DNA of 10,544 nucleotides, taken from IMG/VR virus record IMGVR_UViG_2579778804_000012, positions 1-10,544 of that record. The stretch is one strand, 5' to 3'. Below are positions 1 to 10,544 of this stretch, one piece after another (within the stretch, counting starts at the first letter, position 1; each line of letters opens with the position of its first letter). The translations under genes were made by a program, and so were the position numbers. This DNA is from a virus (lineage: Duplodnaviria; Heunggongvirae; Uroviricota; Caudoviricetes). The notes beneath the pieces are model-generated. The model was not told the origin of the DNA, did no database searches, and was given only the letters and a program-made list of their open reading frames with translations.

Positions 1-1218
1 ATGAACAAACTGAGCGATACCTTGCTAAGGAAACTTCATGGTAAGCCAGCGGAGAAAAACACGTTTTATAGCGATGGCGGAAATCTGAGCGTGAAATATT
101 TAACATCAGGGAAATTAACCTGGTATTTCACTTACAGGGCAGGAACGGGAAGAGAGACACGACCGGAACGTATTAAGCTGGGAAATTATCCTGATCTGAG
201 CCTGAAAGCAGCCAGGGAAAAAGCCGCCCAGTGTCGCGCATGGCTGGCGGAGGGGAAAAATCCACGCCATGAGATGAATTACGCCGTACAGGAAGCGTTA
301 AAGCCGGTAACGGTTGGCGATGCGCTCACCTACTGGCTTGAGTCGTACGTAAAGGAAAACCGCGTGGATTATATCGCCCTGAAAAGGCGACTTAATAATC
401 ACGTAATACAGTACATTGGCGCTATGCCGCTGGATAAATGCGAGCTACGGCACTGGCTGGCCTGTTTTGACCAGGTGGCAAAGCGAACACCTGTTACTGC
501 CGGATTCGTGCTACAGACATGCAAGCAGGCGCTTAAGTTCTGCCGGAGGCGGCGCTTTGCAATCAGCAACGTTCTCGATGATCTGAACGTGGCGGACGTT
601 GGGAAAAAACCGGATATAAGCGAACGTGTCTTAAGCACCAAAGAACTGGGCGAGTTATTGCAGGCGCTGGATAAAAAAATATTTTCTCCTTACTACGTCG
701 CGTTAATCCGCCTCCTGATTGTCTTCGGAGCCAGGACGGTAGAACTGAGGTTATCGGAGATCAGCGAGTGGGATTTTACCGAAATGCTATGGACCGTTCC
801 GAAGGAGCACAGCAAAACGAAGGTTGCAATATTCCGGCCCATACCGGAAGCGATCCTGCCGTTCGTCACGCGGCTGGTGGACCAGAACAGGCACACGGGC
901 TTATTACTGGGGGAAGTGAAACAGGAGGCTAGCGTATCGCAGTACGGCAGATTAGCGCACAGGAGGCTAAAACACCCTCAATGGTCATTGCATGACATCC
1001 GGCGCACCTTTACAACCATGCTGAACGATTTAGGCGTTGATCCTCACGTCGTGGAGCAGCTTACAGGCCACCAGATGCCAGGAATGCAACGCGTGTACAA
1101 CCATTCCCGCTATATTGATGCGAAACGCAATGCGCTTGATATGTGGGTGGAGCGGTTGGAGATACTGGCGGGAACACATGAAAACGTAACCACGCTACCA
1201 GTAACCAGAATAAAATAA
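1..1218 (+). CDS. int: tyrosine integrase, P4-type (N-terminal arm-binding-like domain plus catalytic domain)
   Basis: 405-aa ORF. N-terminus LSDTLLRKL..GKPAEK..YSDGGNLSVKY..W.F.YR...LGNYPDLSLKAAREKA matches the P4-family integrase N-terminal pattern; C-terminus HDIRRTF....GHQMPGMQRVYNHSRY fits the H-x-x-R and catalytic Tyr region. Window begins exactly at its ATG. Confidence 0.9.
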   Translation: MNKLSDTLLRKLHGKPAEKNTFYSDGGNLSVKYLTSGKLTWYFTYRAGTGRETRPERIKLGNYPDLSLKAAREKAAQCRAWLAEGKNPRHEMNYAVQEALKPVTVGDALTYWLESYVKENRVDYIALKRRLNNHVIQYIGAMPLDKCELRHWLACFDQVAKRTPVTAGFVLQTCKQALKFCRRRRFAISNVLDDLNVADVGKKPDISERVLSTKELGELLQALDKKIFSPYYVALIRLLIVFGARTVELRLSEISEWDFTEMLWTVPKEHSKTKVAIFRPIPEAILPFVTRLVDQNRHTGLLLGEVKQEASVSQYGRLAHRRLKHPQWSLHDIRRTFTTMLNDLGVDPHVVEQLTGHQMPGMQRVYNHSRYIDAKRNALDMWVERLEILAGTHENVTTLPVTRIK

Positions 1219-1235
1219 TTTTTTTCGTGTTTTTT

Positions 1236-1251
1236 CAGTATGCGCATACTG
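1236..1251. promoter_or_regulatory. perfect 16-bp palindrome CAGTATGCGCATACTG just after the int stop; candidate protein-binding site or hairpin
   Basis: Self-complementary 16-mer read directly; preceded by a T-run (1221-1235). Confidence 0.4.
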
Positions 1252-1260
1252 GATAAGTGC

Positions 1261-1310
1261 ACAGATACAACGTGAAACAATGTGCAACAACGTGACACAA
1301 TCACGAACAA
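1261..1310. repeat. five tandem 10-bp phased units (acagatACAA cgtgaaACAA tgtgcaACAA cgtgacACAA tcacgaACAA); candidate DNA-binding array
   Basis: Exact 10-bp periodicity with invariant ACAA ends and GTGA/GTGC cores, read directly. Confidence 0.6.
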
Positions 1311-1401
1311 GAGGCCAAAAAGAATACAGATTTGTAAGCTACTGATTTTTAATGCTCAGCTGGTTTTTTATACATTAGTGAATTACGCGTTAAAGTGTGC
1401 G

Positions 1402-1438
1402 AAAAAAGGCATAAAACAAGATTTTATGCCTTTGTATT
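1402..1438. terminator. hairpin terminator candidate between int and alpA (stem GGCATAAAA/TTTTATGCC, A-run before, T-rich after)
   Basis: 9-bp perfect inverted repeat 1408-1416/1422-1430, loop caaga, followed by tttgtatt. Confidence 0.5.
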
Positions 1439-1592
1439 AACATGAATTTAAATGATTTTATCCTGATTATTCCTCTTTCTGTAAACCATGCGACACCAAC
1501 ATTTGCCAACTCTGAATCATCCTGACACAATCAGACACATCCCAACGCAATAGAACACGAAATAACTCTTTAAGAAACGAAAGGGGGCAATA

Positions 1593-1781
1593 GTGTTAAG
1601 CACTGATCGGTTTATACGTGAAAAAGAATGCGAAAAGCTAACAGGCCTTAGCCGCTCATGCCGCTACCGCCTGGAAAAGGCCGGACAATTCCCATCACGT
1701 CGTAAACTTGGTGGGCGTTCTGTTGGCTGGTCTTTATCTGAGGTTTTGGCCTGGAAGGATAGCTGCAAGGCAGTTCACTAA
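1593..1781 (+). CDS. alpA: AlpA-family transcriptional regulator / possible excisionase (GTG start)
   Basis: 62-aa ORF; LTGLSRSCRYRLEKAGQFPSRRKLGGRSVGWSLSEVLAWK matches the AlpA signature (TG.SR...Y......FP..RKLG.RSVGW...E...W). RBS AAGGGGG at 1581-1587. Confidence 0.8.
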   Translation: MLSTDRFIREKECEKLTGLSRSCRYRLEKAGQFPSRRKLGGRSVGWSLSEVLAWKDSCKAVH

Positions 1782-1920
1782 AAAGACTGGCGGCACACAG
1801 TCGCCACACATCCACTAATACAGAGATATAACTATGAAGATTGAATATGCGCCCGAACGTGGGCGGGGATTCGTTCGCCCTGGTGAAACTGAAAAACAAC
1901 AAAATTGGGGTTTTTCAGGC

Positions 1921-1950
1921 ATAAAAAAAGCGGCCCCGATATGGAGCCGC
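1921..1950 (-). terminator. candidate intrinsic terminator for the minus-strand small-gene operon (stem GCGGC/GCCGC, U-run on minus strand)
   Basis: Stem 1930-1934/1946-1950 with 11-nt loop; on the minus strand it is followed by the complement of the A-run at 1922-1929. About 75 nt below the stop of the 2025..2228 gene. Confidence 0.4.
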
Positions 1951-2024
1951 CTTTCTGAACAATTAACCTGCTGCGCCTTATGTGTATGTGATCCCAAACA
2001 TAAGCACGGGAATGATAGCCGCTA

Positions 2025-2228
2025 TCAGGCTGGTGGGCAATTACCTTGCTTGTTGGGGCCGTATTGTGCTGCCATTTTCATCCGTTCAGAACGTGAATAT
2101 TTTTTTAGAAACTCATCAAGGACAAAAGCGCATGGAGCGAATCTTTCTGATTCATGCTCGAGCGCCATATTTTCGTGCTCTCTGTTCGTTTTTTGCGATG
2201 GTGTATTGGTTGATTCTTTGTTGGTCAT
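2025..2228 (-). CDS. small acidic protein of unknown function (67 aa), paralog of the 2686..2913 gene
   Basis: Starts MTN.., shares FVLDEFLKKY with FALEDFVDKY in the paralog; identical 43-bp upstream element; RBS AGGT 8 nt upstream. Confidence 0.5.
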   Translation of the reverse strand: MTNKESTNTPSQKTNREHENMALEHESERFAPCAFVLDEFLKKYSRSERMKMAAQYGPNKQGNCPPA

Positions 2229-2237
2229 TGTGTGTAC

Positions 2238-2280
2238 CTGTAAAGCAATGCGCCGGAGTTCCTCACGCCACGGCGCTGAT
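2238..2280. repeat. 43-bp element, copy a (100% identical to 2923-2965), intergenic upstream of the MTN-type gene
   Basis: ctgtaaagcaatgcgccggagttcctcacgccacggcgctgat read identically at both sites; contains inverted repeat GCGCCG..CGGCGC. Confidence 0.9.
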
Positions 2281-2285
2281 GTTTT

Positions 2286-2465
2286 TTATTCTTTGGGTTC
2301 AATACCGCGTTGCTGTAATTCTTTTCGGATTATTCGTTTTATCCAAGCTGCTAAAGAGTCATCACCGTCTTGTTGTTGTGCTTTTTCCATCTTTTCCCGT
2401 AAGTCAGGATCTAAACGGAACTGGAAAGGAGGATTACCACGCCTTTCATTTTTGTGTGTTGACAC
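2286..2465 (-). CDS. Arc/MetJ-type ribbon-helix-helix DNA-binding protein candidate (59 aa from GTG; 34 aa if ATG at 2390)
   Basis: Minus-strand translation ..RRGNPPFQFRLDPDLREKMEKAQQQDGDDSLAAWIKRIIRKELQQRGIEPKE fits the Arc-like strand-helix-helix pattern; RBS GGGGTG 8 nt upstream of the GTG. Absent from the supplied ORF track (non-ATG start, under 60 aa). Confidence 0.45.
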   Translation of the reverse strand: MSTHKNERRGNPPFQFRLDPDLREKMEKAQQQDGDDSLAAWIKRIIRKELQQRGIEPKE

Positions 2466-2486
2466 GTCAATTACACCCCATATAAT
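2459..2486 (+). promoter_or_regulatory. consensus sigma70-type promoter: TTGACA (2459-2464), 16-bp spacer, TATAAT (2481-2486)
   Basis: Both hexamers are perfect consensus with near-optimal spacing; it overlaps the start region of the minus-strand Arc-like gene. Confidence 0.55.
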
Positions 2487-2492
2487 GTGTTT

Positions 2493-2508
2493 ATGTGTAT
2501 ATACACAT
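2493..2508. promoter_or_regulatory. perfect 16-bp palindrome ATGTGTATATACACAT immediately downstream of the -10; candidate operator
   Basis: Self-complementary 16-mer read directly, at about +1 to +20 of the promoter above. Confidence 0.5.
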
Positions 2509-2530
2509 TACACACAACTAGCACAAAAAA

Positions 2531-2599
2531 CAACGCCCCGCAGTGATGGGAACACATACGGGGCGTCTAACCAAACCATTAATTGAGGTAACGATTATG
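2531..2599. ncRNA. structured element copy 1: 7-bp GC stem CGCCCCG/CGGGGCG with 18-nt loop, conserved tail TCTAACCAAACC, RBS and ATG GCT; leader RNA on plus strand and/or terminator on minus strand
   Basis: Stem 2534-2540/2559-2565. On the minus strand it is followed by TTGTTTTTTGTG (terminator-like). On the plus strand it precedes GAGG, then ATG at 2597. Homologous to 3398-3466. Confidence 0.4.
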
Positions 2600-2685
2600 G
2601 CTATAAAAGAGCATAGCTTACTCTTTATACACACACAAACGCCCCGGAAACGGAATAATCCGTTTCATAGTTCGGTTTTGTGCAC

Positions 2686-2913
2686 TCATCCTGGCGGTCG
2701 GTTTTTGCCGGATTTAAGCCGCCGTGGGTATTTATCGACAAAATCTTCAAGGGCAAATTTTTCTGGTGGCACTAAGCGCGGCGCTGGTGGTGGTATTTTT
2801 GTTCTGGTTAGTTCTTCCTCAAGTCTGGCGCAGGCTTCTGACTGCCTTTGCCGGATGATTTCATCATCTTGCGTTTGCGTGTCTTGTATTGGTGATAGTG
2901 TGTTGTTGGTCAT
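2686..2913 (-). CDS. small acidic/proline-rich protein of unknown function (75 aa), paralog of the 2025..2228 gene
   Basis: Starts MTNN.., contains FALEDFVDKY; preceded by the 43-bp element copy b. Confidence 0.55.
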   Translation of the reverse strand: MTNNTLSPIQDTQTQDDEIIRQRQSEACARLEEELTRTKIPPPAPRLVPPEKFALEDFVDKYPRRLKSGKNRPPG

Positions 2914-2922
2914 GTTACTGCC

Positions 2923-2965
2923 CTGTAAAGCAATGCGCCGGAGTTCCTCACGCCACGGCGCTGAT
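2923..2965. repeat. 43-bp element, copy b (100% identical to 2238-2280)
   Basis: Identical 43-mer between the RHH gene stop (2971) and the downstream gene start (2913). Confidence 0.9.
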
Positions 2966-2970
2966 AGTGA

Positions 2971-3277
2971 TTATTCTGATTCTTTGGCCTTGCGGCGCTG
3001 GAGTTCTTCGCGTGCGATGGCGATAAGTTGCCCGAGTTCTTCCGTAGCTTTAATACCAATTTTTTCCACTTGCGCCAATGCATCGAGAGAAGAAATCAGA
3101 GGATTTTCACTGCTTCCTTCTGCCTGGCGGCGGGCGATCTCCCCGCGCATGGCGGTTACTATGAATCCGGCGTTGCTTTCGCCGTCCAGTTTTACGGATT
3201 CCATGCCATCAAAAGCATCATGTGGGATACGAATTGAAATCTGTTTTGATTTGTCGTTGATAGTGTTTTTTGCCATG
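2971..3277 (-). CDS. ribbon-helix-helix (Arc/CopG-like) DNA-binding protein candidate, 101 aa from the MAKNT start
   Basis: KQISIRIPHDAFDGMESVKLDGESNAGFIVTAMRGEIARRQ fits the RHH pattern. Start moved from the track ATG at 3315 to the ATG at 3277, which sits 6 nt after RBS AGGAGA. C-terminus resembles the Arc-like paralog (IAREELQRRKAKESE vs IRKELQQRGIEPKE). Confidence 0.6.
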
Positions 3278-3298
3278 TGCATTCTCCTAAACAAAAGA

Positions 3299-3376
3299 TG
3301 TGATTCAGTATACACAAAAAAGAATCACAAAAAACACTTGACCTGTGATTCAGTTGAATTTAATTTAAATCACACC
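3299..3376. promoter_or_regulatory. operator-like cluster: TGTGATTCAGT direct repeats (3299-3309, 3344-3354) plus inverted half-sites GAATCACA (3322-3329) and AATCACAC (3368-3375); weak candidate promoter TTGACC at 3338-3343
   Basis: Repeated motif in both orientations in the divergent region between the RHH gene and the Icd-like gene. Confidence 0.4.
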
Positions 3377-3397
3377 TCAGTAAGAGGATGTAAACGA

Positions 3398-3463
3398 CAA
3401 CGCCCCGAACTGTTTGCGGCAGTAGCGGGGCGTCTAACCAAACCGTTAACAGGAGTAACGATT
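3398..3463 (+). ncRNA. structured leader copy 2: stem CGCCCCG/CGGGGCG (3401-3407/3426-3432), 18-nt loop, tail TCTAACCAAACC, RBS AGGAG, then ATG GCT; candidate c4/CI-like regulatory RNA or 5'-UTR element
   Basis: Same stem, tail and RBS/start block as copy 1 but a different loop; no U-run on the minus strand, so a plus-strand role is favoured here. Confidence 0.4.
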
Positions 3464-3664
3464 ATGGCTGGAACACAGCATACCCCACGTCTGGCGCACA
3501 CACAAACTGCCTTTGTGTGGCGTTTTCTGGCCCTGAGTGCCGGAGAATCTCAAATCATCCACGTAACCGCCTGGACGGAACGCGAAGCGCGTAACCGTTG
3601 CCCGTCCGGTTGTGTTGCTGTATTCGCTGCCCGTATTCGCCAGGGGGAAACCTATGCACAATAA
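3464..3664 (+). CDS. small protein (66 aa) in the position of Icd-like (host cell division inhibitor-like) proteins of P4-type elements; identity tentative
   Basis: MAGTQHTPRLAHTQTAFVWRFLALSAGESQ...; good RBS; follows the structured leader. The first 15 aa are homologous to the truncated start at 2597 (MAIKEHSLLFIHTQT). Confidence 0.5.
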   Translation: MAGTQHTPRLAHTQTAFVWRFLALSAGESQIIHVTAWTEREARNRCPSGCVAVFAARIRQGETYAQ

Positions 3665-3884
3665 AACCACACCGGACGCAGCAGAAGAAGCAATGCAAAT
3701 ACTGATACGTGCGCTCGTTGATGTTACCCACATGGTGGAGAGCATGGAGAGAAAATCACAGTCGGAGCACGACAAAAGAAAACTTAAAACAATAAAAATA
3801 ATTGCCAAAAACTCGCTGATAAAAGTTACAGACATCCTTAATGAGGACATTAAAAGAATAAGGGAGAAAATTTGTGATGCATAA
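3654..3884 (+). CDS. hypothetical small protein (76 aa), AT-rich gene
   Basis: ATG at 3654 with RBS AGGGGG 6 nt upstream; overlaps the Icd-like stop; lysine-rich, low GC. Confidence 0.5.
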   Translation: MHNKTTPDAAEEAMQILIRALVDVTHMVESMERKSQSEHDKRKLKTIKIIAKNSLIKVTDILNEDIKRIREKICDA

Positions 3885-4104
3885 AATCCCTTTTGAAGTA
3901 TTAATCCACTCTGAAAACGCATTAATTAAAGCACGCGAAATGAATGCGTTGTTAATTAAATTAATTGAAGTGCCGGAAGGTGGTGAAGAATCAGGTGTAT
4001 TAATGTTTGCAGCCATTCAGACATTACTATCGCCTGTTATTGATGAACTGGATAAGGCAATGGCAATTCACGAGAATAATAACTCGCCCCACACCGGAGA
4101 ATAA
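3874..4104 (+). CDS. hypothetical small protein (about 75 aa), AT-rich gene
   Basis: GTG 3874 / ATG 3877 after RBS AAGGGAG; start overlaps the stop of the previous gene. Confidence 0.5.
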   Translation: MMHKIPFEVLIHSENALIKAREMNALLIKLIEVPEGGEESGVLMFAAIQTLLSPVIDELDKAMAIHENNNSPHTGE

Positions 4105-4109
4105 AAATA

Positions 4110-4409
4110 ATGAAACTTAAATATTCTGGCTTAACTGCCAGTGGCAACACTCACCCTAAATTTACGCGCGGTGATATTTACCGCGACCAGTACGGCGGCA
4201 CGGTAATGATTAAGGGCGTGGCGGGACGGTGCGTAACTTACCGCCGTGAAGGTTACGAATATGATTGCGTGATGCCTGTTTATCAGTTCCGGCGTGATTT
4301 TTCTCTGGTACAGACCGCGCCGCATAACGTGCCCACCAGCAACGCCAGGGCACGGGCAAACATCCAGAAGCTGAAAACCATGATTAACGGATTCAGGGGT
4401 AAAAAATGA
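4110..4409 (+). CDS. hypothetical protein (99 aa), translationally coupled to the helicase gene
   Basis: RBS GGAGA 9 nt upstream; its stop overlaps the helicase ATG (ATGA). Confidence 0.6.
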   Translation: MKLKYSGLTASGNTHPKFTRGDIYRDQYGGTVMIKGVAGRCVTYRREGYEYDCVMPVYQFRRDFSLVQTAPHNVPTSNARARANIQKLKTMINGFRGKK

Positions 4410-5815
4410 AACTGGCACCGAACGTAAAACTATTACCGAAAGACAAATACACCGATGCGATTATTTTTGCGGGTATTGATGCTCACTCATTCGCAGAGCA
4501 TTACATCATTGCACAGGCCAAAAAAGCAGGCGATCCAGTCCCTCCCGTTTATCTGGGGCGTTATCAGTTAAGCGAACTGGATAACCTCCAGATTGTTGAT
4601 GATGGGCGATACAGGGCGACGGTGATACGCGCCGGAAATATTGAAGAGCCGCAGCTGTTAACCATCGCCACGAAACTGGCGATCGCCGGAGTCCAGGAGG
4701 CGCGGCTACTTTCTGAAAATTTCGAATTGCTGGAGGAATGGAGCGACCAGCTTCCACGGCTTAGGGAGGCATGGGAACGCGGGGAAAGCCTGGTCATGAA
4801 AAAAATCCCCCAGCGAAAAACCACGCTACCGATGAGCGTTGGATCTACCGGATACGACACACAGCTTGATTACGTGGTAAAGGGGATTATTCCGGCATCG
4901 TCGCTTTGCAGCATATACGGGGCGAGCGGTTCCTATAAATCATTCCTTGCCGGATCGTGGGCGTGTCACGTTTCCACGGGCCGCCAGTGGGGAGGCCGCA
5001 GGGTGGCGCATGGCGCTGTTCTCTATGTGGTTGGTGAAGGCGGTATCGGCGTTCCGCGTCGTGTAAAAGCCTGGGAGGTTGTGCACGGTGAGCAGGTGAA
5101 AAATCTGTATCTGGTAAACCGTCCCATCTTTCCGGCGGTCCCGCTTGATGTTGATGAAATGGTTATCGCTGCCCGTCAGGTGGAGCGGGAAACGGGTAAA
5201 CCTGTACGCATGATTATTCTGGATACGCTGGCGCGTTGCTTTGGTGGGAATGATGAAAATGATTCCCGTGATATGGGGGCGTTTATCCGTGGTTGTGACG
5301 AACTGAAACGACGCACAGGGGCCACGGTGCTGGTGGTTCACCATTCCGGCAAGGATGAGACGAAAGGCGCGCGCGGTTCCAGTGCATTTCGTGCATCACT
5401 GGATGCTGAATACCGGATACGCAGGGAGGACGCAGGAAGCGAAGCGCTGGTTATCTCATGCACCAAAATGAAGGACGCGGAGGAACTCAAAGAAGCCGCA
5501 TATGACTTACGCGTGGTGGAGCTGTTTACCGACGCTGACGGGGAGTTAATCACGTCGCTGGTGGTGGTGGATAAGCCGCGCCCTCCCGTTGAACTGGAAC
5601 GCATCGAGGAGGCAGGCAACAAGACGGAAAACCATACCGCACTATGGGGGTGCATCCGTTCACGCACACAGAACGGCGACAAGTGCACGATCCCGCTGTT
5701 ACGTGATGACATGAAACGGCTTGGGTATGACGTGAAAAATATGCGGCGATGGTTAGCCAAACTGGAAAAAGACGCCGTGATTTACATTGATGGTGATGAT
5801 GTAGGACCACTGTAA
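4406..5815 (+). CDS. RepA-like replicative helicase / RecA-fold AAA ATPase with C-terminal DNA-binding region
   Basis: 469 aa; Walker A GASGSYKS, Walker B-like VRMIILDTLAR, then VLVVHHSGKD; an iteron array lies immediately downstream. Confidence 0.85.
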   Translation: MKLAPNVKLLPKDKYTDAIIFAGIDAHSFAEHYIIAQAKKAGDPVPPVYLGRYQLSELDNLQIVDDGRYRATVIRAGNIEEPQLLTIATKLAIAGVQEARLLSENFELLEEWSDQLPRLREAWERGESLVMKKIPQRKTTLPMSVGSTGYDTQLDYVVKGIIPASSLCSIYGASGSYKSFLAGSWACHVSTGRQWGGRRVAHGAVLYVVGEGGIGVPRRVKAWEVVHGEQVKNLYLVNRPIFPAVPLDVDEMVIAARQVERETGKPVRMIILDTLARCFGGNDENDSRDMGAFIRGCDELKRRTGATVLVVHHSGKDETKGARGSSAFRASLDAEYRIRREDAGSEALVISCTKMKDAEELKEAAYDLRVVELFTDADGELITSLVVVDKPRPPVELERIEEAGNKTENHTALWGCIRSRTQNGDKCTIPLLRDDMKRLGYDVKNMRRWLAKLEKDAVIYIDGDDVGPL

Positions 5816-6015
5816 AAAGTGAGTAGCAAAAGTGAGTAATGGTGAGGTTTTTACAAAATATTAACACGATTACTCACTTTCTCACCTGTATACATGCTCA
5901 AAAGTGAGGAGTAAAAAAATCCTTATGAAACACACACATAAAGCATCAAAAAATATCAAGTGAGACGAAGCGAGACGCTTTAAAAAGTGAGGTGTAAAAG
6001 TGAGCATGAGTGAGG
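5816..6015. repeat. iteron array, putative replication origin: at least 9 copies of (A)AGTGAG in both orientations with AT-rich spacers
   Basis: GTGAG at 5819, 5832, 5842, 5904, 5960, 5987, 6000, 6010; inverted CTCAC at 5874 and 5881; AT-rich stretches 5850-5870 and 5911-5957. Confidence 0.6.
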
Positions 6016-6269
6016 AGATAACCAAAATGCGCAGAGACAGAACAGAGCCGAAATATAAAGCGTTAGACATGACAGAGCACGCCTTAAAGGTGGCAATCAG
6101 GGTAATAGACCGCCACGCGGGGGAAGGATACGCGAAGGAGCATCCCGAACTGATAAGCGCATTCATGACCACAGCGGCGGCAAACTTTGCCACGCTGACA
6201 GAGCGGGAGATTGCGGAAGCTGAACAGGTGACAACCATCAACGTTAAAAACGTAGAGGTGGAATCATGA
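6000..6269 (+). CDS. hypothetical protein (about 87-89 aa)
   Basis: GTG 6000 or ATG 6006 after GAGG; its stop overlaps the ssb-like start. Confidence 0.55.
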   Translation: MSMSEEITKMRRDRTEPKYKALDMTEHALKVAIRVIDRHAGEGYAKEHPELISAFMTTAAANFATLTEREIAEAEQVTTINVKNVEVES

Positions 6270-6688
6270 CAGCACAGATAGCGGCTTACGGGCGGCTGGT
6301 GGCTGACCCACAGTTAAAGACCACCAGCAAGGGCACACAAATGACGATGGCGAGTATGGCTGTCCCCCTGCCGTGCAGCCAGGCAGATGACGGAACGGCT
6401 ACGATGTGGTTATCCGTCCTGGCGTTTGGCAGACAGGCCGACGCACTGGCAAAACACCGCAAAGGCGAGCTGGTGAGCGTGGCGGGTAACATGCAGGTAA
6501 GCCAGTGGACAGGCCAGAACGGCGAAACGCGGCAGGGCTGGCAGGTTATCGCAGACAGCGTAATCAGTGCGAGAACGGCGCGACCGGGCGGCAAAAAAGG
6601 CCAGCAGGGGCAGGCTACTGACGCACTGAACAGGGCAAAACAACAGGCGGGGAATGATGATCCGTACGGGGATAACATACCGTTTTAA
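6266..6688 (+). CDS. ssb: single-stranded DNA-binding protein (SSB-like, short form)
   Basis: 140 aa; N-terminal OB-fold-like region, Gly/Gln-rich linker, and C-terminal acidic tip DDPYGDNIPF resembling the SSB D-I-P-F tail. Confidence 0.7.
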   Translation: MTAQIAAYGRLVADPQLKTTSKGTQMTMASMAVPLPCSQADDGTATMWLSVLAFGRQADALAKHRKGELVSVAGNMQVSQWTGQNGETRQGWQVIADSVISARTARPGGKKGQQGQATDALNRAKQQAGNDDPYGDNIPF

Positions 6689-6702
6689 GCAACGAGTGAC
6701 AG

Positions 6703-6727
6703 AAGCCGGAGAAATCCGGCTTTTTTG
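6703..6727 (+). terminator. rho-independent terminator after ssb (GCCGGA gaaa TCCGGC + TTTTTT)
   Basis: 6-bp GC stem, 4-nt loop, 6-T run, read directly. Confidence 0.7.
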
Positions 6728-6732
6728 TAGGT

Positions 6733-6880
6733 ACTCCTGGTGGGGGTGCCTGTCCACGGGGCGGCGGGGCGCGGAAAAAGGCGCATTTTTTGATTTTTAT
6801 GGCACCATCACCACCACTATAAGTTATTGATATATTGAGGAATAAAAATTTTTAGTGTCGAATCAGGTTGTTTTTTGTTC
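6733..6880. repeat. ~150-bp element, copy A: GC-rich core CTCCTGGTGGGGGTGCCTGTCCACGGGGCGGCGGGGCGCGGAAAAAGGCGCATTTTTT, His-codon-like CATCACCACCAC tract, ending GGTTGTTTTTTGTTC
   Basis: Aligns block by block with 9270-9420; both copies sit immediately after an intrinsic terminator. Confidence 0.7.
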
Positions 6881-7154
6881 ATCACTGGAGCGTTCCCGAA
6901 AGCATTTACAAAAAAACAGGCGCAAAAAAAGCGCCCCCGATTGCTGTTACCGGAGGCGCTTTTACACGACAAAGGAGTTTTTATCGCCAGGATGACGAGT
7001 CTTAATATTGCTTCAATAGCAAAAATGCGTCAATGGCTTTGCCTCTCTGAGAATAATCAGAAAAATCATAATCTGATTTTATGGTAGAAAATGATTTATC
7101 TATTACTTTTGTCGATCAATAATGATGCCCGTTAATCAAAACGGAGGCGGATTT

Positions 7155-7349
7155 ATGCCAGAGAACAACACCAGAAAGCCGGATAAAAGTGCCACGGTAC
7201 ACATAGACGCCGGAACTATGGAGAAGATCGAACGCTATCAGCAGTTCATCAAAGATAATCACCCGGGTATGCCAGTGCCCACGAAAGGACAAATCACACG
7301 CAGCGCGGTTGAATACTGGTACAGGGCAACGTTAGGAGCCTGGCTATGA
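7155..7349 (+). CDS. small protein (64 aa), possible RHH-type regulator, translationally coupled to the capsid gene
   Basis: ATG 7155 is 7 nt after RBS GGAGG (the track ORF starts earlier at 7122); its stop overlaps the ATG at 7346. Confidence 0.5.
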   Translation: MPENNTRKPDKSATVHIDAGTMEKIERYQQFIKDNHPGMPVPTKGQITRSAVEYWYRATLGAWL

Positions 7350-9235
7350 AAACATGGTTTTCCATTAAGGCTATGGCAGATGTTGTACATGTGCGCATTT
7401 ATGACGAGATCGGCGGGTACGGTGTAAAGGCATCGGCACTTACTGACGAGATCAACGCGTGCGGTAATGTGTCTGAAATCCATCTGAGCATTCATTCACC
7501 TGGTGGCGACATCTTTGAAGGGCTGGCTATCTATAACGCTCTGAAAAATCATCCGGCAAAAAAAATCGTACACATTGAAGGCATGGCGGCTTCTATGGCG
7601 TCGTTTATTGCCATGTGTGGAGATCACATCGTTATGCCTGAAAACGCGATGATGATGATACATGCCCCCCGTGGTGTTACTGCCGGAGTGTCGGGCGACG
7701 TTCGCCGCTTTGCTGATCTGATGGACAAGCTGGGCGACACGATGGCAGAAACCTATGCCGGAAGAACGGGCAGGAGCAAACAGGAGATCACCTCCATGAT
7801 GGAGGCGGAAACCTGGATGGATGGCAATGAGTGTAAGGCTAACGGCTTCGCAGATGAGGTTATACCCGCGATTACAGCAATGGCCCGAATTGAATCAAAA
7901 CGAATCGGAGATTTTTCAAATATGCCGGAAAAAATTAAAAGCATGATCAGCCAGAAAACTGGCAGTGGCGAACAGGAACGACTTAACGGAATCCGTGAAT
8001 TGTTTGGCACCTTCAACGGAAGATATAACGACCTGGCTATAAGTTGTCTTGCGGATTCAGAATGTAGCGTTGAGAATGCACGCGAACGCCTTTTACTCGC
8101 TATGGGTAAAGAATCAACGCCAACAAACAAAACCACCCCCGCAAATCTTTACTACGCGTACACGGATAACGGCAATATAACCGGCGATGCCATGCGTCAG
8201 GGGCTTAATGCGCGTCTTGGTCACGAACGGGCCGAACGCGGTAATCCTTACGCCATGATGAGCCTTTTCGATATGGCACAGGCATCATTAACCCATCGTG
8301 GTATAAGCACGGGCAGCTACAGCACACGCTCGCAGATAGTAAACGCGGCATTCACCCACAGCAGCAGCGATTTTACCGATATCCTTGCTGGTGGCGCTGA
8401 AAAATCAGTGCTTGCAGGCTGGGAGCACAGCGGCGAAACATTCCGCCAGTGGACGAAAAAAGGTTCCCTTTCAAACTTCCGGGAAGCCCGCCGCGTTGGT
8501 ATGAATGGCTTCTCAACGTTAAACAAAGTGCCGGAAGGGGCAGAATATAAATACATCACCACCAGCGATCGCGGTGAACCCATCGCGCTGGCTACTTACG
8601 GGAATATTTTCAGCATTACCCGCCAGGCGATAATCAATGATGACCTTGATCAGTTATCAACGGTGCCAATGGCTATGGGCCGTGCAGCATCAAGAACGGT
8701 GGGAAATCTGGTTAATCTGGTGCTTACAGGCAACGTAAAACTTTCTGACGGAATAGCGCTGTTTGACAAAAAACACAGCAACCTGATTGAAGCAGGACTG
8801 ACAACACCGGGACTTAGTGCAGCACGTCACCTGATGCGCACACAGAAGGACAAAAATGGCGAAGTGCTGAATATTGCGCCTAAATTCCTTTTAGTTCCGG
8901 CAGCACTGGAAGATCGCGCGTTGCAGATGATTAACTCAACCGCACCTTTCGGGGCTGATAAAAACAGCGGGATCTTTAACCCGTATCACAAGCTACTTGA
9001 TATCATCGTCGATCCCCGCCTTGATGATATCAGCGAAAAACAATGGTACATGCTTTCCGCACAGGGAACGGACACAATCGAGGTGGCTTATCTTGATGGC
9101 AATGACGAACCTTACCTTGAACAGCAGGAAGGCTTTATCGTTGACGGCGTGGCCTGGAAAGTCCGTATTGATGCAGGTGTGGCAGCTCTGGATTATCGCG
9201 GTATGGTCAAATCAGGCGGTACCGATTCACTATGA
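7346..9235 (+). CDS. prohead protease (ClpP/S14-like) fused to a probable major capsid protein, with a scaffold-like linker
   Basis: 629 aa; N-terminal 170 aa IHSPGGDIFEGLAIYNALKNH...HIEGMAASMASFIAMCGDHIVMPENAMMMIHAP matches the phage ClpP-like head-maturation protease pattern; the C-terminal ~400 aa is inferred to be capsid from size and context, not from a recognised motif. Confidence 0.75.
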   Translation: MKTWFSIKAMADVVHVRIYDEIGGYGVKASALTDEINACGNVSEIHLSIHSPGGDIFEGLAIYNALKNHPAKKIVHIEGMAASMASFIAMCGDHIVMPENAMMMIHAPRGVTAGVSGDVRRFADLMDKLGDTMAETYAGRTGRSKQEITSMMEAETWMDGNECKANGFADEVIPAITAMARIESKRIGDFSNMPEKIKSMISQKTGSGEQERLNGIRELFGTFNGRYNDLAISCLADSECSVENARERLLLAMGKESTPTNKTTPANLYYAYTDNGNITGDAMRQGLNARLGHERAERGNPYAMMSLFDMAQASLTHRGISTGSYSTRSQIVNAAFTHSSSDFTDILAGGAEKSVLAGWEHSGETFRQWTKKGSLSNFREARRVGMNGFSTLNKVPEGAEYKYITTSDRGEPIALATYGNIFSITRQAIINDDLDQLSTVPMAMGRAASRTVGNLVNLVLTGNVKLSDGIALFDKKHSNLIEAGLTTPGLSAARHLMRTQKDKNGEVLNIAPKFLLVPAALEDRALQMINSTAPFGADKNSGIFNPYHKLLDIIVDPRLDDISEKQWYMLSAQGTDTIEVAYLDGNDEPYLEQQEGFIVDGVAWKVRIDAGVAALDYRGMVKSGGTDSL

Positions 9236-9240
9236 CAACA

Positions 9241-9264
9241 AGGCGGCACCAGCCGCCTTTTTTG
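9241..9264 (+). terminator. rho-independent terminator after the capsid gene (GGCGGC acca GCCGCC + TTTTTT)
   Basis: 6-bp GC stem, 4-nt loop, 6-T run. Confidence 0.7.
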
Positions 9265-9269
9265 CGGGT

Positions 9270-9420
9270 CCTCCTGGTGGGGTGGGCCTGAACACGGGGC
9301 GGGCGGCGCGGAAAAAAGCGCATTTTTGTGATTTTATCGTCATCATCATCATGTGTGTAACCTATTGTTTTTAATGTGGTTGATGCAAAAAAGATGATGA
9401 AGAAGGTTATTTTTTGTTCG
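9270..9420. repeat. ~150-bp element, copy B (homolog of 6733-6880)
   Basis: CTCCTGGTGGGGTGGGCCTGAACACGGGGCGGGCGGCGCGGAAAAAAGCGCATTTTTG, then CATCATCATCAT, then GGTTATTTTTTGTTCG. Confidence 0.7.
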
Positions 9421-9492
9421 ACATCTTTTAGCGTGACAGATTCTTTACAAAAAATCTGAGCTTGTTTTCTTCACCAGCGCGATGGGGGCACA

Positions 9493-9774
9493 ATGACAGA
9501 AGCCGAAATACTGGGATTAATCCGCCGCGTCGCCGGAATCAGCCAGCAGGTTGACGAACAGGCCACGCAGCCGGACAGCATGACCGCAGATAATTATGTG
9601 CGTGTAGTGGTGGAGGTGATGCGCGGTGATGGTATCCAGCTTAATGATGTGGATATGCGCAACATACGAACCAGAGTCCTTGAGTTGCTGGCATACCGTC
9701 GCCGCGTGGAGATGTATCGGGAGAAGGAGAAAATCACGTACCACTGGAAGAAGCCGGAGCGGTTACGGCGGTAA
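9493..9774 (+). CDS. hypothetical protein (93 aa), downstream of the capsid gene
   Basis: ATG with GGGGG 4 nt upstream; charged, arginine-rich C-terminus; function not recognisable. Confidence 0.55.
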   Translation: MTEAEILGLIRRVAGISQQVDEQATQPDSMTADNYVRVVVEVMRGDGIQLNDVDMRNIRTRVLELLAYRRRVEMYREKEKITYHWKKPERLRR

Positions 9775-9888
9775 CTTGTTGATTAAAAGGCGGCTCAATT
9801 CTGAGCTGGGTAGCTGACGGCGGTAACTGTTTTATATTCCCGATAGCGCAAAAATGCGCGGTCGGGCAGAATGACCACCACCTCAATC

Positions 9889-9930
9889 GTGACGGAGAGT
9901 GACAACCAGTGACACACCGTGACAAAAAGA
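9889..9930. repeat. four tandem 10-bp phased GTGAC units (GTGACggaga GTGACaacca GTGACacacc GTGACaaaaa)
   Basis: Exact 10-bp phasing read directly; same motif family as the 1261-1310 array. Confidence 0.6.
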
Positions 9931-9975
9931 CGGTTTAACCGTTCATTAAAAATCGACGTGATTTTGTGCTATCAG

Positions 9976-10000
9976 GATGACGTGGCCAACGTCATTTTTT
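9976..10000 (+). terminator. intrinsic terminator candidate (GATGACGT ggcca ACGTCAT + T-run)
   Basis: 7-8-bp stem followed by TTTTTT at 9995-10000. Confidence 0.5.
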
Positions 10001-10391
10001 AGCGAAAAATTCTGATTAAGGTCACTGGCTGAATGGTCATAATGACCACGCAGACCATCGAGGCAACCATAGCGATCATCGTTACGGTTGGAGCTTTTCC
10101 GCCATTGGTGGAAAAGGTGCACATCTGGATCATCATTACGGTGATCAAGGGTATGTAAAACCCACCAGCCTGATTAAATGTTAACCGGAAAAAAAATCCG
10201 GTAGCCCCGTTATGGGAATCCCCATATCGACAGCAACGCCCCCTTAAAATTACCCGCCTTTATATTTCTTGTGCCTATTTGTTCCACGTTGTTTCATACA
10301 GTGCGCCGAACGGTGTAGTCACTGGTGTAGTTATTTTGAGTTTTTTTGCACTTCGGGCTTAATTGAAAATATAATTAAATCAATATGTTAT

Positions 10392-10544
10392 TCAAAATAG
10401 GTTATATATAACAGCAATAAATAATGCGAGAATAAACGGCACGATGATCTCGGCGGCAAAACGGATACCGCAGAGAATAATGACCAGCATTCCCAACATA
10501 ATGACGATTTTTAGGCCATTGAGCGTGATGATCGGCTTTGCCAT
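10392..10544 (-). pseudogene. 5' fragment of a membrane transporter gene (51 codons, 46-aa hydrophobic N-terminus); TqsA/PerM-like from memory, unverified
   Basis: Minus-strand ATG at the window edge encodes [46 protein letters not shown], then YNLF and a stop at 10392-10394; far shorter than a full transporter. Confidence 0.45.

Follow-up and report, generated by a model that had tools for sequence, protein, structure and literature searches.

A putative control region of two stacked immunity-like cassettes, overprinted by stop-free frames, in a P4-related phage satellite of Escherichia coli

The window examined here is the whole 10,544-nt stretch of the IMG/VR record IMGVR_UViG_2579778804_000012 (positions 1 to 10,544), which is identical in sequence to the E. 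coli 89-3156 record NZ_CP027366.1, and by its gene content it is a P4-related, AlpA-type phage satellite of the Gram-negative phage-inducible chromosomal island (PICI) type. Between its alpA gene and the end of its icd-like gene lies a region which we consider on balance to be the immunity and early-control (on/off) region of the satellite, with two stacked immunity cassettes, and we infer repression, antisense control and translation-coupled read-through as its regulatory steps. Each cassette would consist of a leftward operon (a gene for a ribbon-helix-helix (RHH) protein, an intercistronic hairpin and a small open reading frame (ORF)), a divergent operator/promoter region and a gene for a cis-antisense RNA of ~78 nt. 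The strand opposite the leftward genes carries long rightward frames that are free of stop codons.

Tandem units, their genes and their copy number

A sequence-only reading of this DNA had described two tandem divergent units with a conserved intergenic element and leader, whose proteins had diverged strongly, and a repeat search of the window confirmed this. It returned repeat D2 (2218-2292 against 2903-2977, 75 nt, 85% identity), which holds an exact core of 44 nt, and repeat D1, the leader block (2525-2640 against 3392-3507, 116 nt, 72% identity); an exact 44-mer found twice within 10.5 kb is not chance. All four minus-strand ORFs were found where they had been noted and all four are annotated by RefSeq in NZ_CP027366.1. 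BLASTP aligns the two RHH proteins over no more than 9 residues, and the small proteins have 25% identity to each other (E=0.012). The components of the leftward operons are:

2286-2465, minus strand: RHH repressor gene of cassette 1 (59 aa, Arc-like, GTG start; phrog_228 Arc-like repressor, E=1.5e-6; WP_000103621.1)
2971-3276, minus strand: RHH repressor gene of cassette 2 (101 aa, YlcI/YnfO family, long C-terminal helix)
2025-2228, minus strand: small ORF of cassette 1 (67 aa, MTNKES..., motif ERFAPCAFVLDEFLKKY; WP_000182306.1; phrog_21027, E=2e-12)
2686-2913, minus strand: small ORF of cassette 2 (75 aa, MTNNTL..., motif KFALEDFVDKYPRRLKSGKNRPPG; WP_012601535.1)
2237-2280, minus strand: 44-nt conserved element, copy 1, a putative attenuator-like hairpin in the mRNA from RHH gene to small ORF
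2922-2965, minus strand: 44-nt conserved element, copy 2, an exact repeat of copy 1
1922-1957, no strand assigned: hairpin GCGGC/GCCGC with A-run and T-run, read from the sequence as terminator-like for the leftward cassette-1 operon
2647-2666, no strand assigned: junction hairpin GAAACGGA-ATAA-TCCGTTTC, terminator-like on both strands, between the icd-like start and the stop of the second small ORF

The leftward RHH genes are real. Their assignment comes from a beta-alpha-alpha fold together with the family hidden Markov model (HMM), of which the 101-aa protein exceeds the YlcI/YnfO cut-off; the cassette-1 protein scores 20 bits against YlcI_YnfO_N, under the cut-off, and is Arc-like by PHROG only. 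PDB sequence searches with both RHH proteins gave nothing significant. The YlcI/YnfO-type family of the 101-aa protein is spread over the Enterobacterales, its members being named CopG or Arc-like in some sources, and in a 27-member alignment the variation lies nearly all in residues 2-6 and 11-15, the predicted DNA-reading beta-strand. Among diverged YlcI genes the second codon position of the minus frame is the least changed, and the substitutions give summed BLOSUM scores of +3 to +21 in the minus frame versus -3 to -44 in the plus frame. The reverse of the stop test described below likewise found the minus ORFs to be constrained (0 stops versus 14.0±2.8 expected). The minus-strand ORFs are thus open beyond expectation in relatives, with RHH substitutions that are conservative in the minus frame only, and the earlier suggestions that they code and that the RHH proteins are repressor-like are both supported.

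Support for the small ORFs is weaker. The sole family match of the 67-aa ORF, phrog_21027, has no assigned function, the 17 homologues of the 75-aa ORF are all E. coli hypothetical proteins, and searches of Pfam, NCBIfam and PADLOC gave no match for the small ORFs and no toxin or defence family. The AF2 model of the 75-aa ORF is one long helix with a short helix at the motif, too simple for it to be suited as a structure-search query. Across the related loci 36 unique small ORFs (48-75 aa) make up one family; all begin just 3' of the hairpin, and most carry (R/K)FA(PCx)F(A/V)L(E/D)xF(L/V) as a common motif.

The order RHH gene then small ORF, and an RHH fold nearest to antitoxin DNA-binding domains, resemble type II toxin-antitoxin modules with RHH antitoxins, and the pairs had been proposed to be either such modules or repressor/antirepressor pairs. 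Many pairings of RHH type and small-ORF type are found, joined at the hairpin (the 75-aa type with at least 9 RHH types), and many islands have no small ORF at all; both findings speak against toxin-antitoxin modules and against cognate repressor/antirepressor pairs. A type II toxin-antitoxin module was rejected as a candidate because the second gene has no toxin-family match and is often absent, and the partners are reshuffled; both forms of pairing are thus unlikely. At one related locus (L104) a hydrophobic peptide ORF (MLKLKKHVPMMVALIITI...) follows the hairpin element in place of the usual small ORF, so that the slot 3' of the hairpin can carry different cargo.

The 44-nt element is kept even with a different downstream ORF and is absent where the small ORF is absent. 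In relatives its minus sense forms an 11-bp hairpin (GCGCCGUGGUG/UAUUACGGCGC, loop UGAGG, -17 to -19 kcal/mol) followed by AUUGCUUU, whereas the plus sense reaches only -12 to -14 kcal/mol because of the G.U pairs of the minus sense. We read the element as a hairpin between the cistrons of the RHH mRNA, or an attenuator of that mRNA, which may also serve as a homology patch for cassette recombination. The GCGGC/GCCGC block seen at the end of the cassette-1 operon also lies 3' of the small ORF in L002, L003, L005 and L010.

The number of cassettes varies. Satellites of this type occur in a sizeable fraction of E. coli genomes, the region being matched in 1,548 of 5,426 complete ones, and related islands have the canonical order alpA (rightward), small ORF (leftward), hairpin element, RHH gene (leftward), divergent promoter region, leader and icd (rightward). 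About ten of ~120 classified loci have two cassettes (L007 and L009 among them), and one, L010 of strain 07-4299, has three. The internal junction in all of these multi-cassette loci consists of the leader, 15 Icd-like codons (MAIKEHSLLFIHTQT), the junction hairpin listed above and the stop of the next small ORF, the hairpin being near-identical (1-4 substitutions) at every multi-cassette locus examined. A query spanning the junction was at least 80% covered in 111 of the 5,426 genomes (83-100% identity), and the junction occurs in islands at several integration sites as well as within the three-cassette array.

A comparison with a single-module island, which had been suggested as a check, is given by L002 (strain 2015C-3905). 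This island is inserted at the same site and has a single cassette made of the window's left small ORF and right RHH gene, both proteins being identical. It aligns to window positions 1560-2292 and 2885-3647 with the overlap falling in the 75-nt repeat, so a single unit of 685 bp separates the two islands and the crossover lies in that repeat. This supports the acquisition of the second cassette by recombination within conserved repeats; of the mosaic recombination proposed earlier, the gain of a cassette at conserved sequence therefore stands, but the junction, found in 111 genomes and in the three-cassette array, is no one-off scar. The description of the units as regulatory, immunity-like cassettes is likewise supported.

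Stop-free rightward frames opposite the leftward genes

The rightward strand across the cassettes carries the following:

1834-2586, plus strand: frame A, stop-free, 250 codons, antisense to cassette 1 and beginning 53 nt after alpA
2597-3664, plus strand: frame B, stop-free, 355 codons, with 15 Icd-like codons, then antisense through cassette 2, ending as Icd
3464-3664, plus strand: icd-like gene (66 aa; NF033153, E=5e-18), with a terminator-like hairpin at 3499-3519

The stop codon of frame A (TGA, 2584-2586) overlaps the Shine-Dalgarno (SD) sequence of the ATG at 2597, and frame B stays in phase with icd to the stop at 3664. The ORF from ATG 2597 does have ~15 codons in common with the start of icd (ATG 3464) before it runs antisense through the second unit, as had been noticed. 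The second unit does not, however, replace the body of an Icd-like gene as had been claimed, since what looks like a truncated Icd opens a read-through frame of 355 codons whose end is intact Icd. We therefore give little credence to an insertion of the second cassette into icd by mosaic recombination that left a dead 15-codon stub, with an accidental plus-strand ORF and with gene pairs of the toxin-antitoxin or repressor/antirepressor kind. The stub is in frame with icd over all 355 codons and such frames are open far beyond chance, the junction is conserved and reused in the three-cassette array, and the RHH and small-ORF types reassort, with the small ORF often missing and matching no toxin or defence HMM.

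In almost every related locus the rightward frame has no stop codon between the stop of alpA and that of icd, across antisense genes, promoters and leaders. Open-frame lengths are 385 codons in L002, 514 in L004, 359 in L005, 607 in the two-cassette L007, 474 in L008, 534 in L009, 445 in L011 and 536 in L012, compared to 255 + 380 in the window. The rightward frame and the leftward genes have their third codon positions in common, and antisense frames of this kind are known to run long, so the minus genes alone might matter and the long plus frames might be a by-product of their codon usage, an explanation to which the single interruption of the window's frames also lends itself. Several results speak against it and make it unlikely. 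In 25 unique leftward genes (1,848 codons) there are 0 plus-frame stops, versus 20.3±4.0 expected from synonymous resampling (minimum 9 in 500 trials) and 31±4.4 when the same genes were resampled with E. coli codon usage. No stop occurs in that frame outside the leftward genes either, in promoters, leaders and spacers (P of no stop 1e-3 to 2e-8 per locus, with 0-8 of 5,000 shuffles staying open); in the window, frame A has 125 such codons without a stop (8 of 5000 shuffles open) and frame B has 134 (2 of 5000). The frame joins alpA to icd in phase at many loci, and the same design is found in P4, where the account of eta cited below describes a tested function.

The peptide encoded by the plus frame is junk-like, being rich in Ser, Cys and Phe (S 17.6%, C 6.1%) and poor in Glu and Lys, and in the window it has no Pfam domain. 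A stop-free frame with such a peptide points to selection on the absence of stops and not on the peptide. It is very improbable that the plus strand alone codes, for long Icd-like or Bro-network proteins, and that the minus ORFs are shadow ORFs, although RefSeq annotates a 418-aa Icd-like protein in L011, the satellite literature takes this zone as Bro-network or Ash genes and a transposon screen implicated a long Icd-like ORF. The RHH genes are backed by HMM, fold and minus-frame substitution pattern, the minus ORFs are open beyond expectation, and the changes in the plus-frame peptide are non-conservative.

Pfam Phage_ASH matches, too, coincide with C4 and isrK RNA genes. They fall on them in L008 and, by position, probably also in L011 and L012, which suggests that this family is largely translated RNA-coding DNA. 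In L011 (2390-3646) and L012 (2142-3728) RefSeq annotates an Icd-like/Ash protein of 418-528 aa and omits the leftward genes, which at these two loci are two tandem small ORFs with the motif FALE(D/A)F and no RHH gene.

Divergent promoters and a predicted antisense RNA

The control elements that we assign between the genes are:

2459-2486, plus strand: rightward promoter P_R1 (TTGACA, 16-nt spacer, TATAAT; 12/12 in a promoter scan)
within 2459-2508, plus strand: operator-like repeats ATGTGT/ACACAT of cassette 1, including a 16-bp palindrome at 2493-2508
3299-3374, no strand assigned: divergent promoter/operator region of cassette 2, with TGTGATTC at 3299 and 3344, GAATCACA at 3322 and AATCACA at 3368
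3307-3312, minus strand: leftward -10 of cassette 2, TATACT (reverse complement)
3338-3366, plus strand: rightward promoter P_R2 (TTGACC 3338-3343, 17-nt spacer, TAATTT 3361-3366)
2523-2638, minus strand: predicted antisense RNA gene 1 (-35 at 2633-2638, -10 at 2610-2615, RNA from ~2603 to ~2526, terminator hairpin 2533-2566 and U-run)
3390-3505, minus strand: predicted antisense RNA gene 2 (-35 at 3500-3505, -10 at 3477-3482, RNA from ~3470 to ~3393, terminator hairpin 3400-3433)

At the sequence level every RHH variant comes with its own inverted or direct repeats at equivalent positions around the -35 and -10 elements. The cassette-1 protein is accompanied by ATGTGT/ACACAT, in a promoter/operator layout that recurs in L003, and the cassette-2 protein by TGTGATTC/GAATCACA, pairs of inverted repeats that bracket the -10 of the leftward and of the rightward promoter; at other loci the repeats are GGTAATTACC, TGTAAG(A/C)C, CTGGAATCCAG, GTGTTCAACAC, GTGAATACC or GTGGGCCAC. 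The RHH proteins would repress P_R1 and P_R2 through their cognate repeats.

The leader block had been described as a plus-strand hairpin leader, and is better read as the gene for a minus-strand cis-antisense RNA. A pattern scan of viral contigs gave at least 120 stretches, and these together with the related loci described above yielded 66 unique leaders. When 44 leaders among the matches listed were aligned in the minus sense, an 18-pair structure was 96.0% paired, compared to 35-51% in slid controls of the alignment, with a covariation of 0.244 versus 0.155 for shuffles (0 of 500 shuffles and none of the slid controls reached 0.244). Compensatory pairs include 52-85 (AU 24, CG 19) and 62-75 (CG 21, GC 16, AU 3). 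On the minus sense the helices hold 99 G.U cells and no A.C cell, so that they are only 83.5% paired on the plus sense.

The predicted RNA of ~78 nt would span the SD and start codon of the rightward early ORF (icd), and thus has the form of a cis-antisense RNA, structured, lying opposite the start codon of its target and predicted to end in an intrinsic terminator. The invariant TCTAACCA forms the 3' half of the basal stem, its partner being the complement of AUGGCU. Folding predicts the same two-stem structure for the ORF-start classes, with the anti-SD in or beside the loop in every class; the divergent L078 is the exception in both respects. Of the 30 distinct ORF-start sequences listed, 29, a non-Icd ORF included, have a -10-like TAnnnT at constant distance within the ORF (L078 lacks it), and TGGTATGAT or TGGTATAAT is seen in some variants. 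The predicted antisense gene, from -35 to U-run, coincides with the 116-nt repeat D1 and would have its promoter in icd codons 5-15, which would explain why exactly 15 icd codons are duplicated. Complementarity of the leader loops to the 44-nt element was looked for by eye only, and none was seen.

The leader also folds well in the plus sense (z -3.3 and -2.9), and P4 and P1 have sense-encoded C4/CI RNAs at the same position, so the hairpin could instead act in the plus-sense mRNA as a 5' untranslated-region stabiliser, a processing site or an immunity RNA of the CI/C4 kind. This appears quite improbable to us. The 99 minus-sense G.U cells become A.C mismatches on the plus sense and none do so vice versa, the T-rich tail 3' of the GC-rich hairpin is found on the minus strand only, and no C4 or isrK match was found in the window, even at E<=10 across 2200-3600.

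Rfam searches with the leader and with the 44-nt element found no family at its gathering threshold. The best lead was RF00043, the R1162/RSF1010 countertranscript RNA, which likewise has a region of ~75 nt with a GC-rich hairpin, CUAACCA, SD and AUGGCU where the first gene of a replication operon starts; in both, a RepA-family helicase is encoded downstream. The match was weak (18.1 bits versus a gathering threshold of 55, E=3.3) and was not reproduced on another leader type, and membership of RF00043 was rejected.

The proposed switch, its parallels and its island

In the quiescent state each RHH protein would repress its own rightward promoter, and the antisense RNA would block translation at the adjacent icd start, so that escaping, untranslated transcripts would end early; terminator-like hairpins lie at 2647-2666 and 3499-3519. 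When transcription entered from alpA, or began at the consensus promoter of a derepressed cassette 1, ribosomes would translate the stop-free frame across the antisense cassettes, and those on frame B would prevent polarity and bypass the immunity of cassette 2, as translation of eta does in P4. Translation of the long ORF would prevent premature (Rho-dependent) termination in this eta-like manner, for which the selection against stops and the junk-like peptide give indirect support. Arrays of one to three cassettes would then place several repressor specificities in series.

P4 has a 214-codon ORF that overlaps the vis stop (vis being of the AlpA family) and whose last 65 residues are Kil; Kil matches NF033153 (E=1.6e-21), the same Icd-like HMM as the window's icd. 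BLASTP of the icd-like protein against P4 Kil gave nothing, so the relationship of Icd to Kil rests on their common HMM; tblastn of Icd against phage genomes gave only one satellite-like record. As PMC10111431 relates from Forti et al. 1999 (J Bacteriol 181:5225), eta is translated from the upstream late promoter and kil is its terminal part. The window and P4 thus have in common an AlpA/Vis gene, a long ORF at or near its stop, a terminal Icd/Kil-like protein of 65-66 aa and an internal promoter before kil or icd. A long ORF from alpA to the end of Icd/Kil is present in relatives as single frames of 359-607 codons, and in the window in split form, as two frames joined by the stop/SD overlap.

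The window differs from P4 in that its frame is split into two coupled parts, in that it is without a C4/CI RNA, in that leftward RHH/small-ORF cassettes lie under its long frame and in having a predicted cis-antisense RNA at the icd start. The C4 (CI) and isrK/seqA RNAs of P4 lie inside its 214-codon ORF (C4/isrK at 8420-8705 of our P4 locus, L133), and by eye the P4 ORF list held no RHH-like ORF antisense to eta. Three related loci are arranged as in P4: their C4 and isrK RNAs lie within the long ORF, after the leader and before a second icd-like gene (L003 1760-1964, L008 3896-4081, L010 4592-4777).

The immI region of phage P22 contains the arc and mnt RHH repressor genes, the sar antisense RNA and ant. 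The window has likewise small RHH repressors at divergent promoters and a predicted short cis-antisense RNA over the ribosome-binding site of the controlled gene, but it would control icd/kil and replication genes and not an antirepressor, and its cassettes are stacked under an antisense stop-free frame; the likeness is one of arrangement. Phage P1 immI (c4 RNA, icd, ant) also begins with an Icd-like gene, translation of which is a regulatory checkpoint, and the Icd-like HMM is matched in the window. The window is without the C4 RNA and ant of P1, control being assigned instead to RHH proteins and the predicted cis-antisense RNA.

Several points weigh against the switch proposed here. The long frame of the window is split in two and its frame A does not overlap alpA, and the frames had been noticed before the stop tests were made. 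The RNA by which P4 immunity is defined, C4/CI, is missing: C4, isrK and c4-a1b1 gave no match in the window at E<=1, nor in 2200-3600 at E<=10. The pattern by which leaders were fetched fixes part of one helix and many of the loci are related, both of which bear on the covariation value. The antisense promoter of the window (TTGTGT, 17-nt spacer, TATGCT, at 2638-2610 and 3505-3477) is weak, with 7/12 matches, under the scan threshold. The window's own variant of the 44-nt element is the weakest, its stability on neither strand exceeding that of shuffles (z -1.06), so that the hairpin reading of this element rests on the variants of relatives. In the central part of the 75-aa ORF the substitutions show no frame-specific protein constraint.

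The island itself is ~10 kb long and is inserted in tqsA, according to ORFs, RefSeq annotation and Pfam; related islands are integrated at tqsA, tRNA-Pro, yljB and roxA. Its gene order is integrase (1-1218), alpA, control region, icd-like gene, small ORFs and DUF4222, RepA-family helicase and ssb, and a protease-capsid fusion. The assignment to the PICI type follows from annotation and ORFs, which give an integrase, alpA, a replication module and a few late genes in ~10 kb at a fixed chromosomal site, and the order of zones agrees with the four-zone layout of Gram-negative PICIs set out in PMC10111431. In the YlcI/YnfO, DUF4222 and Icd-like satellite literature we found no description of these cassettes. 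Directly 5' of the control region lies:

1593-1781, plus strand: alpA, AlpA/Vis-family regulator (Pfam Phage_AlpA, E=5e-18; annotated by RefSeq)

Elsewhere in the window, AAGTGAG occurs seven times (0.8 expected by chance) at 5810-6026, just 3' of the RepA helicase gene, with a 49-nt direct repeat, and these repeats look like the iterons of an island replication origin. A block of ~180 nt, made up of a terminator-like hairpin, a GC-rich stretch, GCGCATTTTT..GATTTTAT and GGTT.TTTTTTGTTC, occurs twice at an identical spacing of 2,537 nt, at 6703-6880 (after ssb) and 9240-9419 (after the capsid gene); both copies stand 5' of a late ORF, and the block may be a shared late regulatory element. A single ORF of 629 aa (7346-9235) appears to be a protease-capsid fusion, from motifs read by eye of a ClpP/S49-like prohead protease at the N-terminus and a major-capsid-like C-terminus. 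Short GTGACA/ACAAT-type repeats in the gap between int and alpA (1263-1303, 1513-1533) and near the right end of the island (~9888-9928) could be integrase arm-type or AlpA binding sites. In the same int-alpA gap, 1369-1447 has a weak, sub-threshold Rfam match to BSnc120 (27.9 bits versus 114) which spans a perfect 12-bp inverted repeat (1405-1433) and is probably just a terminator.

The silencing and induction of Gram-negative islands are poorly understood beyond the role of AlpA. If the switch proposed here is true, it would add a repressor layer with swappable specificities and a widespread antisense RNA that is absent from Rfam, and would offer a clear natural example, backed by statistics, of overprinting over long distances, where one strand codes for proteins and the other is merely kept translatable. 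For annotation there is a warning, as public records describe this DNA in two competing ways, either with the long 'Icd-like' or 'Ash' ORFs or with the small leftward genes. It is possible, though we would not yet lean towards it, that these frames are ribosome-conveyor ORFs of up to ~600 codons, antisense to up to four genes (as in L007) and kept only stop-free so as to override stacked immunities, and that the arrays, with their RHH proteins and a so far undescribed antisense RNA family, are combinatorial multi-immunity loci which may set the helper phages and rival satellites that an island answers or excludes.

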